Assembly: GCA_963717745.1 (NCBI GenBank)
Contig: CAVQXJ010000002.1
Span: forward strand, 222,063 to 286,062
DNA from: an uncultured Acidobacteriota bacterium
GTDB lineage: Bacteria > Acidobacteriota > Vicinamibacteria > Vicinamibacterales > 2-12-FULL-66-21
Length of the DNA stretch: 64,000 nt
Reading direction: 5' to 3'
Numbering within the stretch: the stretch's first letter is position 1; every line of letters begins with the position of its first letter. Shown one piece after another: positions 14,540 to 62,621 of this stretch. A program made the translations under genes and the position numbers. The notes below the pieces were generated by a model. The model saw only the letters and a list, made by a program, of their open reading frames with translations, made no database searches and was not told where the DNA came from.

Positions 14540-14559
14540 AGACCCGCCGATGAGGCGAC

Positions 14560-14684
14560 GAAGGTACCGGATCTCAAAAACGGAGCAACGGAGATAACGA
14601 AGAGAACGGAAAAGAAAAAATATTTTGTCTTCTTCGTTTCCTCCGTTCTCTCCGTTGCTCCGTTTTTGAGATCCGTTCCCTCGA
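14560..14684. repeat. repeat family A copy 1: AT-richer ~125-bp imperfect palindrome
   Basis: 14569-14594 GGATCTCAAAAACGGAGCAACGGAGA is the exact reverse complement of 14649-14674. Shares its termini and inner AACGGAG/AACGAAG units with 26517-26656. Confidence 0.9.
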
Positions 14685-20064: not shown

Positions 20065-20460
20065 CCTAGCCTGGCGCCGTCGCTGACATCCACACCCACC
20101 CGAGGTCCATCGTAGGAGAAAGGCTGACGGCGATCCCGAAGGGGTCGGCTGGACGACGGCCGCCGGTGCGACCGGGCACGCGACATGCACTCGGCTTTGA
20201 ACAGAGATCCCCGCGTCAGACACTGCGGCAATGCCCACGATGATTTCGAGGTCAGCCGCAATAGGTGAGTGCGCCATAAGCGCACGAACCTGTGCGCACA
20301 CAGCCGTGCACGTGGGCGGTTTCGGCCGCATGGCCGCAGAGCTCCGGGGCCATCTGTCGAGAGGAATGACGACCGTTCGATGCGCTGGCGTGAATATCGA
20401 GAAAGCACCCCGCCGGCGCGGACGCGGTCGCGCACGAAACGCGCGGTGTGGCGAAGGGGC

Positions 20461-20991
20461 GTGTCCCGGCCTGGTGGCCTGAGGCGATCGATCATCGGTG
20501 TCGTCGTGCTGATGTGCGGCATCACCTCGACCGCTCAGGACGTCACCGGGCCTGCATTGAAGGCCGCTTTCGTGTATCAGTTGCCGAAGTTCACCGAATG
20601 GCCGCCCCCGGCCATCGCCCCCGACAGTCCGTTCTCACTGTGTGTCCTTGGCGAAGCCGTCGTGGGCGAGGCCTTCGAACGGATGGTCAAAGGGCGCGAC
20701 TACGGCGGACGTCGAATCGCCGTTTCCCGGCTCGCGCCCGGAGCGACGGCCCTGGGCTGCCACGCGTTGTATGTCGCGCAGGGCGCGACCGGCGTGCAGG
20801 CGGTCCTCGCGGAGGTCCGCGAGCGGCCGGTGCTGACGATCAGCGACATCGACGGCTTCACCAAGCTCGGCGGCATCACGCAGTTGTATTTCGATGGCGG
20901 TCAATTACGGCTGTTCATCGACACTGCGGCCGCGAACCGCGCCGGGCTCAAGATCAGCTCGCGCCTGCTGAAACTCTCGAAAGAGCCATGA
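20461..20991 (+). CDS. YfiR-family (DUF4154) periplasmic protein
   Basis: LKAAFVYQLPKFTEWP...FSLCVLGE...PVLTISDIDGFTKLGGITQLYFDGGQLRLFIDTAAANRAGLKISSRLLKLS. Start uncertain (20380 or 20461). Its stop overlaps the next start (ATGA). Confidence 0.8.
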   Translation: MSRPGGLRRSIIGVVVLMCGITSTAQDVTGPALKAAFVYQLPKFTEWPPPAIAPDSPFSLCVLGEAVVGEAFERMVKGRDYGGRRIAVSRLAPGATALGCHALYVAQGATGVQAVLAEVRERPVLTISDIDGFTKLGGITQLYFDGGQLRLFIDTAAANRAGLKISSRLLKLSKEP

Positions 20992-23028
20992 GTCATCGCT
21001 ACGCGTTCAAGTCACTCGCTCGACGTTGCGGCGCGGTAATGCTGCTGGCGCTGCTCGGCGCCGCGGCGCCCGCGTCCGCCCAATCCTCGCTGCCCGACCT
21101 CAACATCGAAGAGCTGATGAAGCTGGACGGCGGGCAGGTCTTCGGCGCGTCAGAGCGCCTCCAGCCCGTCACCGAGGCGCCGTCGTCTGTCTCATTCGTG
21201 ACCGCCGAAGACATCCGGCGGCACGGCTACCGCACGCTCGCCGAGATCCTGCGTGGGGTGCGAGGTCTCTATGTGACCGACGATCGCAACTTCAGCTTTA
21301 TCGGAGCCCGCGGCTTCGGCAAGCCTGGCGACTACAACAGCCGGATCCTGCTATTGATCAACGGCCACCGGGTCAACGACAACGTGTTCGGGCAGGCGGA
21401 GATCGGCGCCGAGTTCGGGCTGGATCCGTCCACGTTCGAGCGGGTCGAGATCATTCGTGGCCCCGCCTCCTCCCAGTATGGCGACAGCGCTTTCTTCGCT
21501 GTCGTCAACGTGATCACCAAGACCGGCGCGTCGATCGATGGGGGAGTGGTGACGGCCGAGGTCGGGATGCTCGGCACTCGCACGACCCGGGCGAGCGCCG
21601 GACGGCGATTCGCCAACGGCGTCGACCTGGCCGTCTCGGCCGCCTTGGGCCACAGCGACGGCAACGGGCGGCTGTATTTTCCGGAGTTCGATGCGCCGGA
21701 GACCAACCACGGCATCGCCCGGAACCTCGATGCCGAGAGCGTCCGTCAGTTCTATTCGCGGCTGTCGTTCAACAAGGTGACGGTGACCGCGGCCTATGGG
21801 ACCCGGACTCGCGAAGTGCCGACCGCATCGTTCGGCACGGTCTTCAACGAGCAGGCGTTCCCCGAGCAGACGACCGATCGTCATACGCTGGTCGATGCCG
21901 AATATTTGCGGACGATCCGCGGCACGAAGGCGGCGTTCCGGGTGTCCTTCGACCAGTTCTCGTACGACGGCGACTATCCGTTCGCCGGCGACGAGAGCCG
22001 GCCGCTCCTGCTGGGCCGCAACACCGTGGTCGGCTCGCGCTGGAGCGCCAGCGCACGCGGGACGCGGACGCTGCCGGGACGGCAGATCCTGACGGCCGGC
22101 GCCGAGTTCATCGACAACTTGCGCCAGGATCAGAGCAGCGTCTTCCTCGACTCCCCAGGCGGCGGCGTGCAGGACGTGCTGGTGGATGCTCCACGCTCGT
22201 CGCGTCAACACGCGCTCTATTTTCAAGACGAGATCCGCATCAAGGATTCGATCATCCTGAACGGCGGACTGCGCTACGACGGCTACGAGCAGTTCACCCG
22301 GGTCACGCCGCGCGCCGCGTTGATCTTTCTGCCCTCGGCCAACCAGTCCTTCAAGTACCTGTTCGGGCGCGCCTTTCGCGCGCCGAGCGCCTACGAGAGC
22401 ACCACGTTCTACTTCGGCGACTCGGTGGAGCAGCTCCAGCCCGAATCCATCGATACCCACGAGCTGGTGTGGGAACGCTACTTCAACGACGCACTGCGCA
22501 CGTCGGTGTCGACCTATTGGTACAAGGCGGAGCGTCTGCTCACACTGGTACCCGACGACACCACGTTTCTGGGGTCCCGGTACGTCAACGCGGGGGAAGT
22601 CCACGCCTCGGGGGTCGAGCTCGAAGGGCAGCTCCGCATCACCAGCAACGCGCAGGCGCACTTCAGCTACGCGCTGCAGCGCACCGAAGATCAGGACTCG
22701 CAGACCGAGCTTCCCAACTCCCCGCGTCACATGGCGAAAGGTCGGCTCAGCATTGCCGGTCCGTCGCGTGGATCTTCGATCGGTGTCGAAGGTCTGTTCA
22801 TGAGCAGCCGACAGACGCTCCTCGGTTCGCGCCTCCCACCCGCCGGCACGGTGCACCTGACGGTGATCCAGCCGCTCGGCCGGGCATGGGATCTGCTCGT
22901 TCACCGCCCGGAACCTGTTCGACGTGACCTATGCCGATCCGGCGTCGAGCGCCCACCGGCAGGATGCAATCACACGGAACGGCCGGACCGCACGCGTCGG
23001 TCTCACCTGGAAGTTCTGGAAACCCTAG
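20988..23028 (+). CDS. TonB-dependent outer-membrane receptor; reading frame broken about 45 codons before the end
   Basis: Signal peptide plus plug (EAPSSVSFVTAEDIRRHGYRTLAEILRGVRGLYV). The canonical C-terminus FTARNLFDVTYADP...GRTARVGLTWKFWKP* is encoded in the +1 frame from about 22900 to 23028. Confidence 0.85.
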
Positions 23029-23195
23029 TCCCCTGGAAGGGTGATGACTCGCCCAATTCCCGGGCGGGGCATCCCGGTTGGCGGCGTTGCTCATCGCTCA
23101 CATATGTCCAATATGCTCGCTCTTCGCGCCTTGCCAGCCGGGCGCCGCGCTCCGGGATTTAGGCAAGTCATCACCCTTCCATTGGACGGGACGCC
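23025..23195. repeat. repeat family F copy 1: TIR-bounded ~171-bp element with conserved ~100-nt core
   Basis: Core 23058-23157 matches 61461-61559 at about 84/100 by eye. Inner perfect 15-bp IR at 23035-23049 / 23166-23180. Outer arm 23179-23195 resembles the 61573-61592 TIR. Confidence 0.85.
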
Positions 23196-25358: not shown

Positions 25359-25463
25359 CCCCGCCTGTCAAGGGACAAGGGACAAGGGAGAAAGACAAGG
25401 GAGAACTCCCGGATGTGGGTCGAGTAGTAGGAGCTTGTCCCTTGTCCCTTATCCCTTGTCGTT
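25359..25463. repeat. repeat family B copy 1 (hairpin form, GGGACAA/GGGAGAA heptamer arms)
   Basis: CCCCGCCTGTCAAGGGACAAGGGACAAGGGAGAAAGACAAGGGAGAAC, then a loop, then CTTGTCCCTTGTCCCTTATCCCTTGTCG. The right arm overlaps the last codons and stop of the O-methyltransferase gene. Confidence 0.85.
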
Positions 25464-26492
25464 GCCGCGCGGCTTGCGCGCGGCAACGATTCCCCGCGCG
25501 GCCGCGCCCTCGGTGTAGCGGCAGCCGGAAAACCCCGCCTCGACCAGATACCGCTCCATCTCCGCGGTCGAATAGCAGCGCCCCTCCGACGCGTGCATCA
25601 GCAGCACCGAGTATTCAGCCACGTGCAACGGGCCGGTCTTGGTGGCGTTCAGGAACGCATCATGGACGATGACCAGCCCTCCGGGGGCGAGTGCGGCGAA
25701 CGACTTGTTCAGGAGGTCGGTGACGGTCGCGACATCCCAGTCGTGGAGCACGTTCGAGAACAGATGCACGTCCGCACCGGCGGGCAGCGGATCGACTAGC
25801 ATGTCGTTCGCGATCACCGAGACGCGATCGGCGAGGCCCCGCTTCGCGATCGCGGCGGCGGCGACCCGGTCGACCGGAGGCTTCTCGAGCACGGTGCCCC
25901 GCAGGTGCGGGTGGTGGGCGGCCAGCGCGCAGGCGTAGATCCCCGATCCTCCTGCGATATCGAGCAGGTGCTGGTGCGGCCGCAGGTCGACGGCGCGGGC
26001 CACGAACTGCGAGAGATAAATTCCGCGGCAGTCCATTGCCGCGGTGAATGCCGCGGCGAACTCCTCGCGCTCCATCGACTTGTGCCAGTCGTCCTTGGCC
26101 TGGTGCGTTCCCCAGTTCGCCGGTTTGCCGGTGCGCAGCACGGTCAACAACTCCGCGGCGACCGGGCGATCCGCGACCGTCGGGTAGTAGGGGCCGAGAT
26201 ACCAGGGTGACCCCTTCACGAGATGGTCGCGCGCGGTATCCGTCACGGCATAAACGCCGTCGGCTTCGCGCACCAGGCCCATCGCGGCGAACAGCGTCAG
26301 CATCACGTCGGCCGGACGCGGCGTGATGCCGAACGTCGCGCACAGCTCCGCGAGTGTCGATGGCTGCCTGGCCAGCGCCGAGAACAGGTCGAGATGCAGC
26401 CCGGCGATCAGGAGATCGGGCGCGTGCAGCGCGTCGCGATAGCGGTAGAGCAGCGTCGGGTCGGTGGCCGGCGACGAGAGGAAGTCGCTCAT
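25449..26492 (-). CDS. family-2 (COMT-like) SAM-dependent O-methyltransferase with N-terminal dimerisation domain
   Basis: LLDIAGGSGIYACALAAHHPHLRGTVLEKPPV...DRVSVIANDML...DVHLFSNVLHDWD...LAPGGLVIVHDAFLN. Confidence 0.8.
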   Translation of the reverse strand: MSDFLSSPATDPTLLYRYRDALHAPDLLIAGLHLDLFSALARQPSTLAELCATFGITPRPADVMLTLFAAMGLVREADGVYAVTDTARDHLVKGSPWYLGPYYPTVADRPVAAELLTVLRTGKPANWGTHQAKDDWHKSMEREEFAAAFTAAMDCRGIYLSQFVARAVDLRPHQHLLDIAGGSGIYACALAAHHPHLRGTVLEKPPVDRVAAAAIAKRGLADRVSVIANDMLVDPLPAGADVHLFSNVLHDWDVATVTDLLNKSFAALAPGGLVIVHDAFLNATKTGPLHVAEYSVLLMHASEGRCYSTAEMERYLVEAGFSGCRYTEGAAARGIVAARKPRGNDKG

Positions 26493-26516
26493 TGTCGAGA
26501 CGTTCGGAGATGGTCG

Positions 26517-26656
26517 GAGGTACCGGATCTTAAAAACGGAGCACCGGAGCCAACGAAGAAAACGGAGACGTCACTAGTGTTTTGGTTTCCAAAAGAAATG
26601 TCTTTTCCGTTGCCTTCGTTGGCTCCGTTGCTCCGTTTTTGAGATCCGGTATCTCC
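26517..26656. repeat. repeat family A copy 2: ~140-bp imperfect palindrome
   Basis: The left arm GGAGGTACCGGATCTTAAAAACGGAGCACCGGAGCCAACGAAGAAAACGGAGACG pairs with 26601-26656 with few mismatches. Confidence 0.9.
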
Positions 26657-26690
26657 GCACTCGACCTCCGGTCCGACGTCTCGCCAGAGC

Positions 26691-31615: not shown

Positions 31616-31623
31616 GGAGCTTC

Positions 31624-31660
31624 GCTGTCAAGGGAGAAGGCAGAAGGGAAAAGGGAGAAC
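31624..31660. repeat. repeat family B copy 2 (single arm)
   Basis: GCTGTCAAGGGAGAAGGCAGAAGGGAAAAGGGAGAAC lies between two convergent stop codons. Its last 34 nt are identical to the reverse complement of 52014-52047. Confidence 0.85.
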
Positions 31661-32139
31661 TAGATCGACTCCAGCTGCTGGTAGTGGTGGATGTCGTGGC
31701 CAGCCATCTGCGCCGCGATCCACCACACGTTCAACGTCCCGAACTCCGGGTGCGTGAACGTGCGTTCCCGCTGCTTCGTCGTCAGTGCCCGCCACATCCC
31801 CAGGTTCATGTCCCGCAGCGATGTATAGGCGTTCAGTGCGGTCCGGGCGGCCATGCCGCTGTCGAGCGGTATCCAGTCGTCTTGTGAGAACGACTGCGCG
31901 TTGTACTCATCCTGGCTGAGCGCATACCGGGCGCGCGTCGTCAGCGCCAGCTCGGTCTGCGCCAGGTGGATCAGGATCTGCCGGGCGCTCCATTTGCCAG
32001 TCGCATAACTGCGTTCGAACTCCGCGTCCGTCCAGCCGTCGACCAGGGCTCGAATCTTCCCGGGGGTGTCGCCGAGCGCCTCGAGCGGCTCGCGATCGCC
32101 GAGCGGAGCGCCGTAGGGGTTGGGGGCAATCTGAGTCAT
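31660..32139 (-). CDS. DinB-family metal-dependent four-helix-bundle protein
   Basis: WSARQILIHLAQTELALTTR...MAGHDIHHYQQL, a typical DinB His triad context. Confidence 0.8.
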   Translation of the reverse strand: MTQIAPNPYGAPLGDREPLEALGDTPGKIRALVDGWTDAEFERSYATGKWSARQILIHLAQTELALTTRARYALSQDEYNAQSFSQDDWIPLDSGMAARTALNAYTSLRDMNLGMWRALTTKQRERTFTHPEFGTLNVWWIAAQMAGHDIHHYQQLESI

Positions 32140-36696: not shown

Positions 36697-36740
36697 CCCC
36701 GCGTGTCAAGGGAGAAGGCAGAAGGGAGAAGGGAGAAAGG
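36697..36740. repeat. repeat family B copy 3 (single arm)
   Basis: CCCCGCGTGTCAAGGGAGAAGGCAGAAGGGAGAAGGGAGAAAGG ends 1 nt before the rdgB stop codon. Preceded by the small hairpin GCGGGG-N13-CCCCGC. Confidence 0.85.
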
Positions 36741-42503: not shown

Positions 42504-42539
42504 ACCAACCTTCGCGTGACAGGAGAGCGAAGGTTGGTG
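42503..42539 (-). terminator. 13-bp-stem hairpin at the 3' end of ssrA
   Basis: CACCAACCTTCGC-N11-GCGAAGGTTGGTG. One arm includes the tmRNA ACCA end. No clear U-tract. Confidence 0.45.
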
Positions 42540-42888
42540 GAGGCGGCGGGATTCGCACCCGCGTCCGAAAATACTTCCCCGCAGGAATCTACGATGCGTA
42601 TCCGCTTCTATTTTGTCGCTCCCGACGTGTGGAAGCGGCGAAGAACCGTCGGGAGCCAACCCCAGAAAATCTTATCGCTGACGTCTGAGGCACCCGTCAG
42701 CAACCAGCCTACTAAAATGACATCCACTCCCGGCCCGCAGGCTGACCGGGGTAGACGCTCACAGGTTCTTAGGCTGCGAGTGCGAGCTGCGTGTCCGCAG
42801 TTAGTGTTGTTTCCATCTTTTGTCGAGGGTGATGGTCCTCGGCACGCATCCTGCGAAACCGTACCTCCGTCGAATCTAGGTCGCCCCC
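42535..42888 (-). ncRNA. ssrA: transfer-messenger RNA (tmRNA, SsrA)
   Basis: Minus strand starts GGGGGCGACCTAGATTCGACGG and ends GGACGCGGGTGCGAATCCCGCCGCCTCCACCA (tRNA-Ala-like acceptor/T-arm). Internal tag frame GCG GAC ACG CAG CTC GCA CTC GCA GCC TAA gives ADTQLALAA. Confidence 0.93.
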
Positions 42889-48937: not shown

Positions 48938-49272
48938 CGACGATACGACGATACGACGATACGACGACAACGACGTAATGCTGTGGCCACGAGGGAACGT
49001 CGGGGCATCTCCTAAGTGCCCTTTGCTATGACCAGCCAGCCACGTATCAACGGTTCTCCCCGTTGGCGGCGACGCCGGCCTTCGGCCGACGTTGACAGGA
49101 GTGAGGATCGGGAAGATCACAAGCAGTCGGGGTCTTTGAATGGACTGCTTGTGATTTTCCCGATCCTCACTCCTGTCACCGCGCGTAGCGCGGCGCCGCC
49201 AACGGGCAGCGTCCGTCGAAGTGACTCACAAGGGTTTTGTCTTACGTCGTGTCGTCGTGTCGTCGTCTCGTC
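48938..49272. repeat. ~335-bp nested imperfect palindrome (family E; inner hairpin = family G copy 2 at 49091-49180)
   Basis: Three tiers. (ACGACGAT)x3-4 at 48938-48980 pairs with CGTCGTGT-type units at 49242-49272. 49059-49077 pairs with 49189-49206. 49094-49128 pairs with 49143-49177 (34/35). Confidence 0.85.
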
Positions 49273-52006: not shown

Positions 52007-52013
52007 GCGAGAA

Positions 52014-52055
52014 GTTCTCCCTTTTCCCTTCTGCCTTCTCCCTTGACACGCGGGG
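52014..52055. repeat. repeat family B copy 4 (single arm, reverse orientation)
   Basis: GTTCTCCCTTTTCCCTTCTGCCTTCTCCCTTGACACGCGGGG is the reverse complement of the B consensus. Lies 8 nt after the stop of the upstream gene. Confidence 0.85.
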
Positions 52056-56329: not shown

Positions 56330-56446
56330 CCCCCCGCGTGTCAAGGGAGAAGGGAGAAGGCAAAAGGGAGAACTGACGGATTCGCGCCAAGAAATAGGAG
56401 ACTCCCCCTTCTCCCTTCTCCCTTTTCCCTTGTCGGCGTCAGGGGG
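56330..56446. repeat. repeat family B copy 5 (full hairpin, ~43-nt arms, ~30-nt loop)
   Basis: The left arm CCCCCGCGTGTCAAGGGAGAAGGGAGAAGGCAAAAGGGAGAAC pairs with the right arm CCCCCTTCTCCCTTCTCCCTTTTCCCTTGTCGGCGTCAGGGGG. Confidence 0.9.
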
Positions 56447-58280: not shown

Positions 58281-58394
58281 GCAATGCCAAAAATGCCAAA
58301 AATGCCAAGAGTGCCAAAACTGGGGGGCACTGCCGCGCGTTTTCCACCCCCGCACTTTTGGCATTCTTGGCCCTTTTGGCATTTTTGGCATTCC
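58281..58394. repeat. family C hairpin: ~40-nt arms made of ATGCCAAAA nonamer repeats
   Basis: The left arm GCAATGCCAAAAATGCCAAAAATGCCAAGAGTGCCAAAAC pairs with the right arm GCACTTTTGGCATTCTTGGCCCTTTTGGCATTTTTGGCATTCC. Occupies most of the 121-nt spacer between the two ABC genes. Confidence 0.9.
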
Positions 58395-60221: not shown

Positions 60222-60279
60222 CGCTCGACAAGGGACAAGGGGTGCCTTCTCCCTTCTCCTTTGTCAGCGTCAGGCCCCC
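60212..60279. repeat. repeat family B copy 6 (hairpin variant), probable bidirectional terminator
   Basis: GGGGGCCTGACGCTCGACAAGGGACAAGGGG ... CCTTTGTCAGCGTCAGGCCCCC. The left stem contains the ABC gene's TGA. The right stem ends 3 nt before the convergent gene's stop. Confidence 0.85.
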
Positions 60280-60927: not shown

Positions 60928-61422
60928 TTACATTTCCGGATGTTGCGAGCGATGCAGTCGCTTCCGATGCGTCGTGATCATCACGAACGCGACGCGGTAG
61001 GCGAGGAGGGCGAGCAGTGTCGCCGCCACGGTCGATCCCAGCGTGAAGGCCCAGAGGACGGGTCTCAACGCTCCGGCGGCGGTCCGGAACTCCGTCCACG
61101 ACAGGTTCTTCATCGCGACCAGCAGCGCCTCGACCGCACCGGGAGGAACCGACGTGCGCAACAGGGAGGCGCCGAGCCAGGTCGCCAGCGAGTAGTACGG
61201 CACCAGGATCCAGGGCAGGTTGGAGTAGACCCCGAGCAGCACGGCGACCCGATTCAGGTTCAGTGCGAACGCGAGAATCAGGCCCAGAATCGTGTGAAAC
61301 CCGAGCAGGGGAGAGAAGCCCAGAAAGACGCCGAGCGCATAGGCGGCGGCGGTTCGCTGGGGCGTGTCGTGGGTGTGCAGCAGCTGCTCGAGCCACACCC
61401 GAACCCGAGGGAATCTCACCAC
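60928..61422 (-). CDS. DUF2062-family membrane protein
   Basis: HDTPQRTAAAYALGVFLGFSPLLGFHTILGLILAFALNLNRVAVLLGVYSNLPW. GTG start. Confidence 0.75.
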   Translation of the reverse strand: MVRFPRVRVWLEQLLHTHDTPQRTAAAYALGVFLGFSPLLGFHTILGLILAFALNLNRVAVLLGVYSNLPWILVPYYSLATWLGASLLRTSVPPGAVEALLVAMKNLSWTEFRTAAGALRPVLWAFTLGSTVAATLLALLAYRVAFVMITTHRKRLHRSQHPEM

Positions 61423-61427
61423 GCGGG

Positions 61428-61592
61428 CTAGTGTCCCGTCCCAGTGGTTCGCGACACAAGTCCCGGGCGGGGCATCCCGCCTCGCAGCGTTGCTCCTCGC
61501 TCAGATACTCCCGGTATCCTCGCTCGTCGCGCCTTGCGATCCGGGCGCCGCGCCCGGGACTCATGCCACGATCCACTGGGACGGGACACTAG
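61428..61592. repeat. repeat family F copy 2: perfect 20-bp TIRs + conserved ~99-nt core
   Basis: CTAGTGTCCCGTCCCAGTGG (61428-61447) is the exact reverse complement of 61573-61592. Core 61461-61559 is homologous to 23058-23157. Confidence 0.9.
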
Positions 61593-62621
61593 TCAGAAAT
61601 GAGTGAACCCTGACGGGAGCGGCTGGGAGACGCCATCGGTCTCGAGCAGAATAGCAGGCGCCGCCGTGAGCTCGCCGATTCGAGTGACGGGCACGCCGCG
61701 GGCCTGTTGGATCACGGTCCGGAGCCGTCCGCCGCGCCGTGGCGACACCGTGAACAACAGCTCGTAGTCGTCGCCGCCGGCCAGGGCGGAGGCGACCGGG
61801 TCTTCCCCCGCCGCCGCGAACCACCGCCGCGCGGCGTCCGGGATGGGAATCGCCTTCGCGTTGACGATCGCGCCGGTTCCACTGGCGCGGGCAATCGCGG
61901 TCACTGCGTCGGCGAGGCCGTCGCTGAGATCCATGCACGCCTTTGCACACCGGGTGCGTCCCAGAATCGCGCCGATCCGGGTTCTCGGCGTGGGTCGCCG
62001 GTGCCGGGCGGTCAACGCCGCGATGTCCTCCGGCTCGGCCTGTCCAGCTCCCCGGTGGCGCCGGAGCCACCCCAGGCCCGCCGCGGCGGCGCCGATGGAT
62101 CCGGTGACGTAAAGGGCGTCACCAGGCCGGCCGCCCGACCGGGTCAGCACCCGCCGCTCACGGACGTCGCCGACGGCGGTTACGTCGAGGATCAGCGGGC
62201 CTGGCGAACGGGCGATGTTGCCGCCGGCGAGCGTCACCCCCGCCTCCGCGGCCATTTCCGCGAATCCGTCCAGGAGGGCATCGACCTCGGCGACGGTCAA
62301 CCGCTCCGGCAGAATCAGGGACAGCAGTGCGAGGCGCGGCGTCCCGCCCATGGCCGCGACGTCGCTGACGTTCACCGCGAGCGCCTTGTAGCCGACGTCC
62401 GCGAACGAGGAGAATCCGAGGTCGAAGTGGATGCCCTCGACCAGCGCATCCGTGGTCAGGACCTGCAGCTCGCCTCGCGTCCCCGCCGCGACCGCGGCGT
62501 CGTCGCCGATCCCGGTGTGGAGGCCTTTGGAGACGGGGAAGCGCTCGCGGATGCGCTCGATGAGCGCCCGTTCGCCGATCGTGCCGATGGAAGGGGACTG
62601 GCTGCTACCGGGCGTATTCAA
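61593..62621 (-). CDS. thiL: thiamine-monophosphate kinase
   Basis: IGERALIERI...GIGDDAAV...LLTTDALVEGIHF...GGNIAR...ACMDLSDGLADA...GGDDYELLFTV. Confidence 0.9.
   Translation of the reverse strand: MNTPGSSQSPSIGTIGERALIERIRERFPVSKGLHTGIGDDAAVAAGTRGELQVLTTDALVEGIHFDLGFSSFADVGYKALAVNVSDVAAMGGTPRLALLSLILPERLTVAEVDALLDGFAEMAAEAGVTLAGGNIARSPGPLILDVTAVGDVRERRVLTRSGGRPGDALYVTGSIGAAAAGLGWLRRHRGAGQAEPEDIAALTARHRRPTPRTRIGAILGRTRCAKACMDLSDGLADAVTAIARASGTGAIVNAKAIPIPDAARRWFAAAGEDPVASALAGGDDYELLFTVSPRRGGRLRTVIQQARGVPVTRIGELTAAPAILLETDGVSQPLPSGFTHF

Follow-up and report, generated by a model that had tools for sequence, protein, structure and literature searches.

A CTAG-bounded palindromic repeat family of about 166 bp in Vicinamibacteria with a fold conserved on one strand

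The junction between thiL and a DUF2062 gene in an uncultured Acidobacteriota bacterium is filled by a palindromic sequence of 165 nt. The locus lies in a stretch of 64,000 nt (assembly GCA_963717745.1, contig CAVQXJ010000002.1, positions 222,063 to 286,062), which is called the window here. It raises the question of whether the palindrome is an old spacer, a mobile repeat, or a structured element maintained by the host. The palindrome at 61428..61592 is referred to as copy 2, and a related one at about 23025..23194 as copy 1. We find that copy 2 is a recently inserted member of a previously undescribed family of about 166 bp that is bounded by CTAG and occurs almost only in Vicinamibacteria (Acidobacteriota). 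The family is likely to be a non-autonomous mobile palindromic element of the class of MITEs (miniature inverted-repeat transposable elements), REPINs, and ERICs. Such an element would be moved in trans, integrate at CTAG or TA at gene ends, and propagate as a single-stranded rod of minus polarity.

The first part of the answer comes from the same junctions in close relatives. The closest ThiL homologues are 98% (L117), 93% (L118/L119), and 85% (L120) identical, and their loci share the gene order rny-thiL-DUF2062-3D-domain. The spacer between thiL and the DUF2062 gene is 12 nt in L117, 9 nt in L118/L119, and 9 nt in L120, and the family profile gave no hit at this junction in L117-L120. The window reads TGA [CTAG...CTAG] CCCGCGTGGTG, while L117 reads TGA TCGG CCCGCATCGTG, L118 reads TGA TCCG CCCGCATGGTG, and L120 reads TAG TCCCCTGGC ATGGTG. 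Copy 1 lies between a TonB-dependent receptor gene and an acyltransferase gene, and the corresponding spacer is 4-6 nt in relatives whose downstream acyltransferase is 86, 81, and 76% identical. In L121, this junction reads ...TGGACCCGG TAG TCGGC ATG, and the natural TAG stop of the receptor is thus the TAG of the left CTAG of the element in the window. Both window copies are thereby shown to be insertions that are missing from close relatives. The initial annotation had favored mobility at the DNA level, or a strand-independent role, over a cis-acting leader, and had proposed a search for empty sites at the thiL-DUF2062 junction. The empty sites at both loci and the widespread multi-copy family bear out mobility, as opposed to a cis-acting leader or a fixed spacer. 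Since the relatives do not carry the same sequence there, mobility is supported over an ancient spacer.

The empty sites have two further features. TCGG or TCCG directly follows the stop codon at both loci (L117:1522-1530, L118:3027-3035, and L121:1528-1536, with TGA TCGG, TGA TCCG, and TAG TCGG, respectively), and this may reflect a target preference as judged from only two loci. The empty junction of the 85% relative (L120:2755-2772) reads TTCTAGTCCCCTGGCATG. In it, CTAGTCCCCTGG exactly matches the terminus of copy 1's arm subfamily and may be either the remnant of a lost element or a chance likeness to the ancestral spacer (TCCGCCCGC).

To collect the family, a set with a single genome for each GTDB species was scanned for a pair of invariant blocks, GGGCGGGGCATCCCG N5-9 GCGTTGC. 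The scan yielded at least 116 loci, and the family counts, the alignment, and the neighbor analysis are all drawn from the matches listed. Nearly all listed loci are in metagenome-assembled genomes (MAGs) labelled Vicinamibacteria, Vicinamibacterales, Vicinamibacteraceae, or Acidobacteriota, with the taxonomy labels as deposited. A single MAG, CAWFJQ01, has at least 10 copies, and a profile search of the window found two copies only. Copy 2 matches the profile over model positions 1-166 (nhmmer, E = 4.5e-43), and copy 1 matches with E = 1.9e-38. The length is exactly 166 nt in 83 of 93 distinct complete copies. Conservation peaks in the central ~90 nt; the middle parts of the arms vary by subfamily yet match the partner arm. 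The core blocks GGCGCCCGG and CAAGGCGCGA, which lie outside the search pattern, are more than 90% conserved. Some further copies are on contigs from MAGs that bear the labels Bifidobacterium/Bifidobacteriaceae, Phycisphaeraceae, or Longimicrobiales (L041, L072, L083, L099, L107, L008, and L030). These labels are probably binning or labelling errors and do not indicate true hosts.

Searches for a known counterpart gave no match. The family pattern was not found in viral contigs. No real Rfam family matched the element, either at the gathering threshold over the whole window or at E <= 10 for both copies, and only chance hairpins of miRNA and snoRNA models appeared. Full-text literature searches returned no description of the element family, and the repeats of Vicinamibacteria are uncharacterized as far as these searches show. 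The element is non-coding. Its sole recurrent short open reading frame (ORF), MPRPG..., starts on the sense strand from a conserved ATG and was considered as a small gene; this was rejected because the continuation falls in the variable, unconserved arms.

The termini point to the site of insertion. Both ends carry CTAG in 38 of the 52 copies with intact termini, and the sequence beyond the ends is unconserved. The terminal ~12 nt have the consensus CTAGTG[GT]CC[CT]G, and TTAG...CTAA, GTAG, and CTAC are rarer end variants. In the window, CTAG occurs 15 times against ~195 expected from base composition, which is a ~13-fold depletion, and three of the 15 are in the two copies. For comparison, GATC occurs 615 times and TCGA 594 times in the same window. 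Several of the other CTAGs are at gene ends or beside other hairpin repeats (31612/31660, 36741, 56317, and 26574). TAG makes up about one third of stop codons. At 38 of the 137 ends that carry a TAG, this triplet is the in-frame stop of a coding-like ORF that enters the element; 13 of these are sense-side and 25 antisense-side ends, where sense refers to the strand on which the hairpin is conserved.

The genes around the copies were called with a finder based on third-codon-position GC, which was checked on the window; it is crude, and its starts are the longest possible extensions. Genes lie within 400 nt on both sides in 45 copies. The neighbors are co-directional in the same sense as the conserved strand in 14 copies, co-directional and antisense to it in 11, convergent in 14, and divergent in 6. 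The orientation relative to transcription is random, and the placement in both orientations that had been proposed from the two window copies holds across the family. About half of the co-directional cases fit tightly on both sides, as at thiL-DUF2062. Neither a sigma-70-like promoter nor an intrinsic terminator was found in or beside the element (61300-61750, both strands), and there is no U tract. The recurrent neighbor ORFs belong to abundant paralog families only, such as FtsX/MacB-type permeases, sensors, and PQQ dehydrogenases.

The second part of the answer comes from the structure. For 89 aligned copies, the RNAalifold consensus is one rod of 56 pairs, with compensatory double changes in 39 of the 56. 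Standard pairs make up 95.5% of cells, compared with 34-45% when the 3' partner is slid by 1-3 columns, and none of 500 shuffles matched any of the five observed pairing measures. In the variable arms (alignment columns 21-35 and 143-157), compensatory changes occur at every pair. On the minus strand, the rod has three tandem G.A/A.G blocks, each of which is present in 74-84 of the 89 copies; on the opposite strand, these blocks are C.T/T.C. The Watson-Crick pairs between the G.A blocks covary (columns 73:105, 76:102, 77:101, and 81:97), and columns 76:102, for example, are C-G in 43 copies versus G-C in 36. The apex is a 5-bp covarying stem with a pentaloop of consensus YGGGM.

The conservation of this rod depends on the strand. 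In the arms only, mismatches that are A.C on the plus strand and hence G.U on the minus strand outnumber the reverse by 181 to 37, and they prevail in 74 copies versus 5. Over the whole structure on the minus strand, G.U exceeds A.C by 372 to 50 in all cells, although the aligned copies are related and cell counts overstate independent events. Column and cluster counts address this partly, and the excess is seen in columns where one type prevails (32 versus 8), after collapse to 56 sequence clusters (233 versus 34), and in private changes within clusters (18 versus 7). With RNA parameters, the minus-strand fold is the stabler one for 85 of 89 copies, by 10.2 kcal/mol on average; with DNA parameters, this holds for 75 of 89, by 3.0 kcal/mol on average.

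This strand-asymmetric conservation implies that selection has acted on a single strand with a given polarity. The initial annotation had offered a role that does not depend on the strand, for example as a protein-binding site or as a hairpin that works in both directions, and the G.U excess and the stability of the minus-strand fold contradict it. Since the orientation is random and a promoter is lacking, the main cause cannot lie in selection on the host transcripts at each locus. The asymmetry is mostly fixed at the subfamily level, which points to selection on propagating copies. Two other accounts of the pattern were tried and rejected. Snap-back copying of one arm does not fit, as the bulges, G.A blocks, and mismatches are conserved asymmetrically. 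The CUCCUCCC tract of the plus strand was considered as an anti-Shine-Dalgarno motif; the conserved fold is on the other strand, and the tract there forms the G.A helix.

Copy 2 illustrates the fold (Minus strand as sense, 165 nt, CTAG...CTAG). The left arm of the outer stem (61428..61447, no strand assigned) is CTAGTGTCCCGTCCCAGTGG on the plus strand and starts with CTAG (61428-61431). Its exact reverse complement, with 0 mismatches, forms the right arm (61573..61592, likewise without strand), which ends in CTAG (61589-61592). Besides these two arms, no match to CTAGTGTCCCGTCCCAGTGG with up to 3 mismatches was found, and 0 were expected by chance (100 shuffles); the perfect 20-nt inverted repeat recognized earlier is thus exact. 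The next segments inward, TTCGCGACACAAG (61448..61460) and CTCATGCCACGAT (61560..61572), have no assigned strand; they are partners of each other and are subfamily-specific with their complementarity kept. These 13-nt spacers had been described as 8/13 complementary, which is correct as a Watson-Crick count. On the plus strand, A.C accounts for four of the five mismatches, and these become G.U on the minus strand, so that minus-strand RNA pairs 12 of 13 spacer positions. The repeat, spacer, and core had been treated as separate modules. Instead, copy 2 is a single continuous rod-like hairpin of ~80 base pairs, and the 20-nt repeats are the outer end of one long stem. Its minimum free energy as RNA is -128.6 kcal/mol on the minus strand (z = -11.4) and -114.3 kcal/mol on the plus strand (z = -9.4).

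The conserved core of copy 2 (61461..61559, minus) has 82% identity to copy 1, and many of its positions are invariant in the 89 copies. It contains an irregular G.A-rich helix with a sense 5' strand at 61519..61533 and a sense 3' strand at 61489..61503 (both minus). The tandem G.A/A.G pairings are 61527-61528 with 61494-61495, 61524-61525 with 61497-61498, and 61520-61521 with 61501-61502. The apical hairpin (61504..61518, minus) has the 5-bp stem GATAC/GTATC and the pentaloop CGGGA on the sense strand. The apical stem of copy 1 is CATAT/ATATG, which represents two compensatory changes relative to copy 2.

The genes around copy 2 are both on the minus strand. In the transcript, the TGA stop of thiL (61593..62621; stop at 61593-61595, TCA on the plus strand) would be immediately 5' of the element, directly adjoining its right arm. 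The GTG start (61420-61422) of the DUF2062 gene (60928..61422) is 5 nt 3' of the element; these positions agree with those first reported. The name thiL is based on homologs that carry AIRS/AIRS_C domains (Pfam) and are annotated as thiamine-monophosphate kinase. DUF2062 was assigned by Pfam via orthologs, which start at the equivalent position (VRF..R), 9-12 nt past the thiL stop.

Copy 1 (minus) has arms of another subfamily. Its core (23054-23155) shares 82% identity with 61457-61558, and, as had been stated before, copy 1 has the same plus-strand polarity as copy 2 while its neighbors are plus-strand genes. The left CTAG (23025-23028) includes the TAG stop of the TonB-dependent receptor, and the right terminus is degenerate, without CTAG. 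The fold is again better on the minus strand (-114.2 versus -106 kcal/mol). The receptor gene (ORF 20448-23162) has one extra base at 22895-22915 relative to the L121 ortholog. This places the last ~42 codons (…NLFDVTYADP…TWKFWKP*) in another frame, and the mechanical ORF passes the TAG into copy 1, to 23162. The extra base marks either a frameshift pseudogene or an assembly indel.

These observations can be joined into a mechanism for a mobile element. Integration would occur at CTAG, or at the TA within CTAG. Because such sites are here largely at TAG stops, insertion would take place exactly at gene ends without damage to the gene. In the simplest case, insertion at a TAG would regenerate the stop and would hence be tolerated. 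Mobilization would be provided in trans by an enzyme that is not encoded nearby. The form that must stay intact would be a single strand of one polarity folded as the rod. Whether this strand is a single-stranded DNA (ssDNA) hairpin for a RAYT/TIRYT-like HUH transposase or an RNA is about evenly split in our judgment. The RNA form is favored by the larger stability advantage of the sense strand with RNA parameters, and the ssDNA form is favored because a separate group of TIRYTs is encoded in Acidobacteria (Di Nocera et al. 2013, PMC3733652). At the thiL locus, the gene order and the spacers of 9-12 nt in relatives suggest that copy 2 is co-transcribed with thiL and the DUF2062 gene, in the orientation that pairs well. 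When folded, the copy would hold the thiL stop to within a few nucleotides of the DUF2062 start at the base of the stem, and this would account for its being tolerated at a junction with tight coupling. Copy 2 would probably modulate the operon, be it by pausing, by RNase III cleavage, or by weakened coupling, and would have no dedicated host function.

Several points weigh against a mobile element of this kind. The copies were collected by an exact 22-base pattern, so the sample leans to well-preserved copies and the conservation of those bases, i.e., the blocks GGGATGCCCCGCCC and GCAACGC, is forced. The center and not the termini is most conserved, which is unusual for a passive MITE and gives room for a host or RNA function. 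Core-only short forms with arms of ~6-10 nt (e.g., GTTTTA...GAAAAC) are present at L029:5033-5143, L035:1300-1450, L062:2874-2978, and L006:2-175, and the core can therefore exist without long arms. At the thiL junction, the empty sites read TCGG or TCCG in place of the CTAG...CTAG of the filled site, and a simple duplication of CTAG or TA is thus not demonstrated there. As CTAG is palindromic, a target duplication is in any case indistinguishable from an inverted repeat at the ends of the 38 of 52 intact copies with CTAG (or TA) on both sides. No recurrent transposase was found near the copies in an all-against-all BLAST of 1307 ORFs from the at least 116 loci, and no listed copy has an internal gene except a nested insertion sequence (IS) of the IS110 family in L011. 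Finally, the orientation does not correlate with local GC skew (35 versus 50, p = 0.13), and no replichore pattern is seen among nine copies on one 4.35-Mb contig. A strict lagging-strand ssDNA mechanism is thus without support so far, although this counts weakly.

The same facts can be read with function first. The element would then be primarily a structured RNA (the product of a small RNA gene, or part of an mRNA on which it acts in cis) that is maintained by the host as an RNase III or other processing site, an mRNA stabilizer, or a protein-binding rod, and its spread would be secondary. G.U wobbles together with tandem sheared G.A pairs are a classic signature of selection on an RNA fold, and the sense-strand advantage is indeed larger for RNA than for DNA (-10.2 versus -3.0 kcal/mol). 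The high conservation of the core across many MAGs, the conserved GGG apical loop, the core-only forms, and the transcription of copy 2 in the well-pairing orientation fit as well. We nevertheless regard this reading as unlikely. The orientation to the neighbors is random (14/11/14/6), and adjoining stop codons are commoner at the antisense than at the sense side (25 versus 13), so many copies would be transcribed in the poorly pairing orientation. As neither a promoter nor a terminator was found within or next to the element, the complete hairpin RNA would have to come from an external promoter. No Rfam family matches, and close relatives lack the element at both loci, which makes it dispensable there. 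A combined view, which we put forward as a speculative and rather improbable one, is that the conserved rod, with three G.A blocks, a GGG pentaloop, and bulges at fixed places, both has a function as a single-stranded module and spreads through the genome. It might be a mobile structured-RNA gene with scattered copies that stem from a master at the RNA level, as in a short interspersed nuclear element (SINE), or the substrate of a new HUH/RAYT-like ssDNA system in Acidobacteriota that recognizes the 166-nt hairpin and the CTAG tag.

Two simpler roles were also weighed. A transcription terminator or attenuator that acts between genes in either direction would account for the extreme stability of the hairpin and for its position, which is nearly always just after stops or in intergenic spacers. 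There is little to recommend it further: the element lacks a U tract, sits in tight co-directional junctions such as thiL-DUF2062 where the downstream gene would be silenced, and has a conserved core sequence that termination does not need, while a bidirectional function leaves the strand asymmetry unexplained. A palindromic site in double-stranded DNA (dsDNA) for a dimeric regulator or a nucleoid-associated protein is the hardest to credit. The two-fold symmetry, the conserved central sequence, and the occurrence in both orientations are expected of such a site. However, the arms vary freely as long as they are complementary, and neither this nor the G.T-over-A.C strand bias, the conserved asymmetric bulges, and the G.A blocks matter to duplex DNA.

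The family, read as a mobile element, can be compared with known bacterial repeats. ERIC/IRU elements are imperfect palindromes of ~127 bp in Enterobacteriaceae and Vibrio. Both they and the present family are small, non-coding, and interspersed, form one long imperfect hairpin with a conserved center (across genera in ERIC/IRU), and are intergenic near gene ends in both orientations. To our knowledge, ERIC/IRU elements have no known transposase, which is a further shared trait. In contrast, the two are not related in sequence and occur in different phyla. The present family also has CTAG ends that double as TAG stops, arms that vary with their pairing kept, three tandem G.A blocks, and a documented asymmetry between the strands.

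The REP/REPIN-RAYT system is alike in its palindromic repeat, in a terminal tag that gives TAG stops, and in a hairpin that matters on a single strand. The TAG stop of neighboring ORFs often comes from a GTAG REP terminus (Di Nocera et al. 2013, PMC3733652). Long persistence, lineage-specific subfamilies, and a mobilizing gene expected as a single copy elsewhere are also in common. Unlike REPs, the present family has the tag CTAG and not GTAG or CGTC, its unit is one 166-nt hairpin and not a 20-40 nt REP or a REP doublet, and conservation is highest at the center and not at REP-like ends. No RAYT or TIRYT gene was found beside any listed copy, although the test of this was a weak one.

Correia elements (CREE/NEMIS) of Neisseria and bacterial MITEs are ~100-160 bp long, with terminal inverted repeats and a TA-containing target. 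The present family resembles them in size, inverted repeats, a probable TA-containing target, and insertion polymorphism (between strains in Correia elements and MITEs). Correia elements are co-transcribed as long hairpins and can be cut by RNase III, and copy 2 would likewise be co-transcribed with its neighbors as a long hairpin. In these elements, conserved ends enclose a variable interior; the present family is the reverse, pairs over its full length, and is strand-asymmetric. The label MITE-like given in the initial annotation therefore stands for the small size, the lack of coding capacity, the inverted termini, the multiple copies, and the insertion polymorphism, but not for the classic pattern of conservation, which is inverted. 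No cognate autonomous IS with the same termini was found among the ORFs of the at least 116 loci. The interrupted copies were examined as autonomous parents and rejected, as L011 has a nested IS110 with a duplicated CT core and the others are truncations into ordinary genes.

The ends recall a different group. IS630 elements are reported to prefer CTAG targets with duplication of TA, and the present ends read C-TA-G...C-TA-G; the variants TTAG...CTAA, GTAG, and CTAC also fit xTAy with TA duplicated. The cut-and-paste transposition of dsDNA by IS630/Tc1 elements leaves the strand-specific hairpin unexplained, and neither an IS630-like transposase nor a matching full-length element was seen at the listed loci. 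PATEs of the IS200/IS605 group have separate subterminal hairpins and no terminal inverted repeats, and they insert 3' of a tetranucleotide without duplication. The present element is, in contrast, one end-to-end hairpin with inverted termini and does not belong with them; only the association with the tetranucleotide CTAG is alike. The architecture and genomic behavior are closest to ERIC/IRU and REP/REPIN, and the ends resemble IS630-type targets. The family is outside all these systems by sequence or defining features.

Some copies have been altered after insertion or differ in layout. In L011:761-2391, a copy is split by a 1.45-kb IS of the IS110 family (Pfam DEDD_Tnp_IS110 and Transposase_20). 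The insertion is in the conserved core, in the stretch homologous to 61489..61503, and reads GCGTTGCTC-CT|...|CT-CCCTCAAAT, with CT on both sides. This nested insertion identifies the family repeat as a target of an IS110-type element. REPs are likewise targets of IS110-type elements in other bacteria. Half-elements that run straight into ordinary genes (L014, L017, L040, L047, L068, L079, L089, and L114) indicate decay or rearrangement at the repeats. The apical hairpin is internally duplicated in L021:4009-4184 and L045:2798-2982, with ACCGGGAGT present two or three times, and the short forms in L006 are two in tandem.

Vicinamibacteria are abundant soil bacteria that are known almost entirely from MAGs. 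A multi-copy repeat of 166 bp that folds perfectly matters for assembly and binning of such genomes. It also affects gene calling, as the frameshifted receptor ORF runs into copy 1 and the terminal TAG is often a stop. The family could be used as a lineage marker, and it serves an IS110-family element as a natural target. It unites three features that are rarely documented together in a bacterial repeat, namely clear insertion polymorphism, very strong compensatory change, and a conservation that is specific to one strand and includes tandem G.A pairs, and their combination makes the choice between an RNA and a DNA single-stranded form directly testable.

The window contains other structured sequences. 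The tmRNA gene (42535-42888, minus; Rfam RF00023, 163 bits) is its sole Rfam match at the gathering threshold. Further families of long intergenic hairpins, unrelated in sequence to the present one, have arms of short purine-rich or A-rich repeats (AACGGAG..., AATGCCAAAA..., and AAGGGAGAAGG...). One set of these hairpins is located at 14559-14682, 26515-26657, 58283-58392, 49090-49181, and 981-1057, and a second set at 25359-25469, 31619-31661, 36697-36737, 52013-52055, 56332-56443, and 60245-60274.

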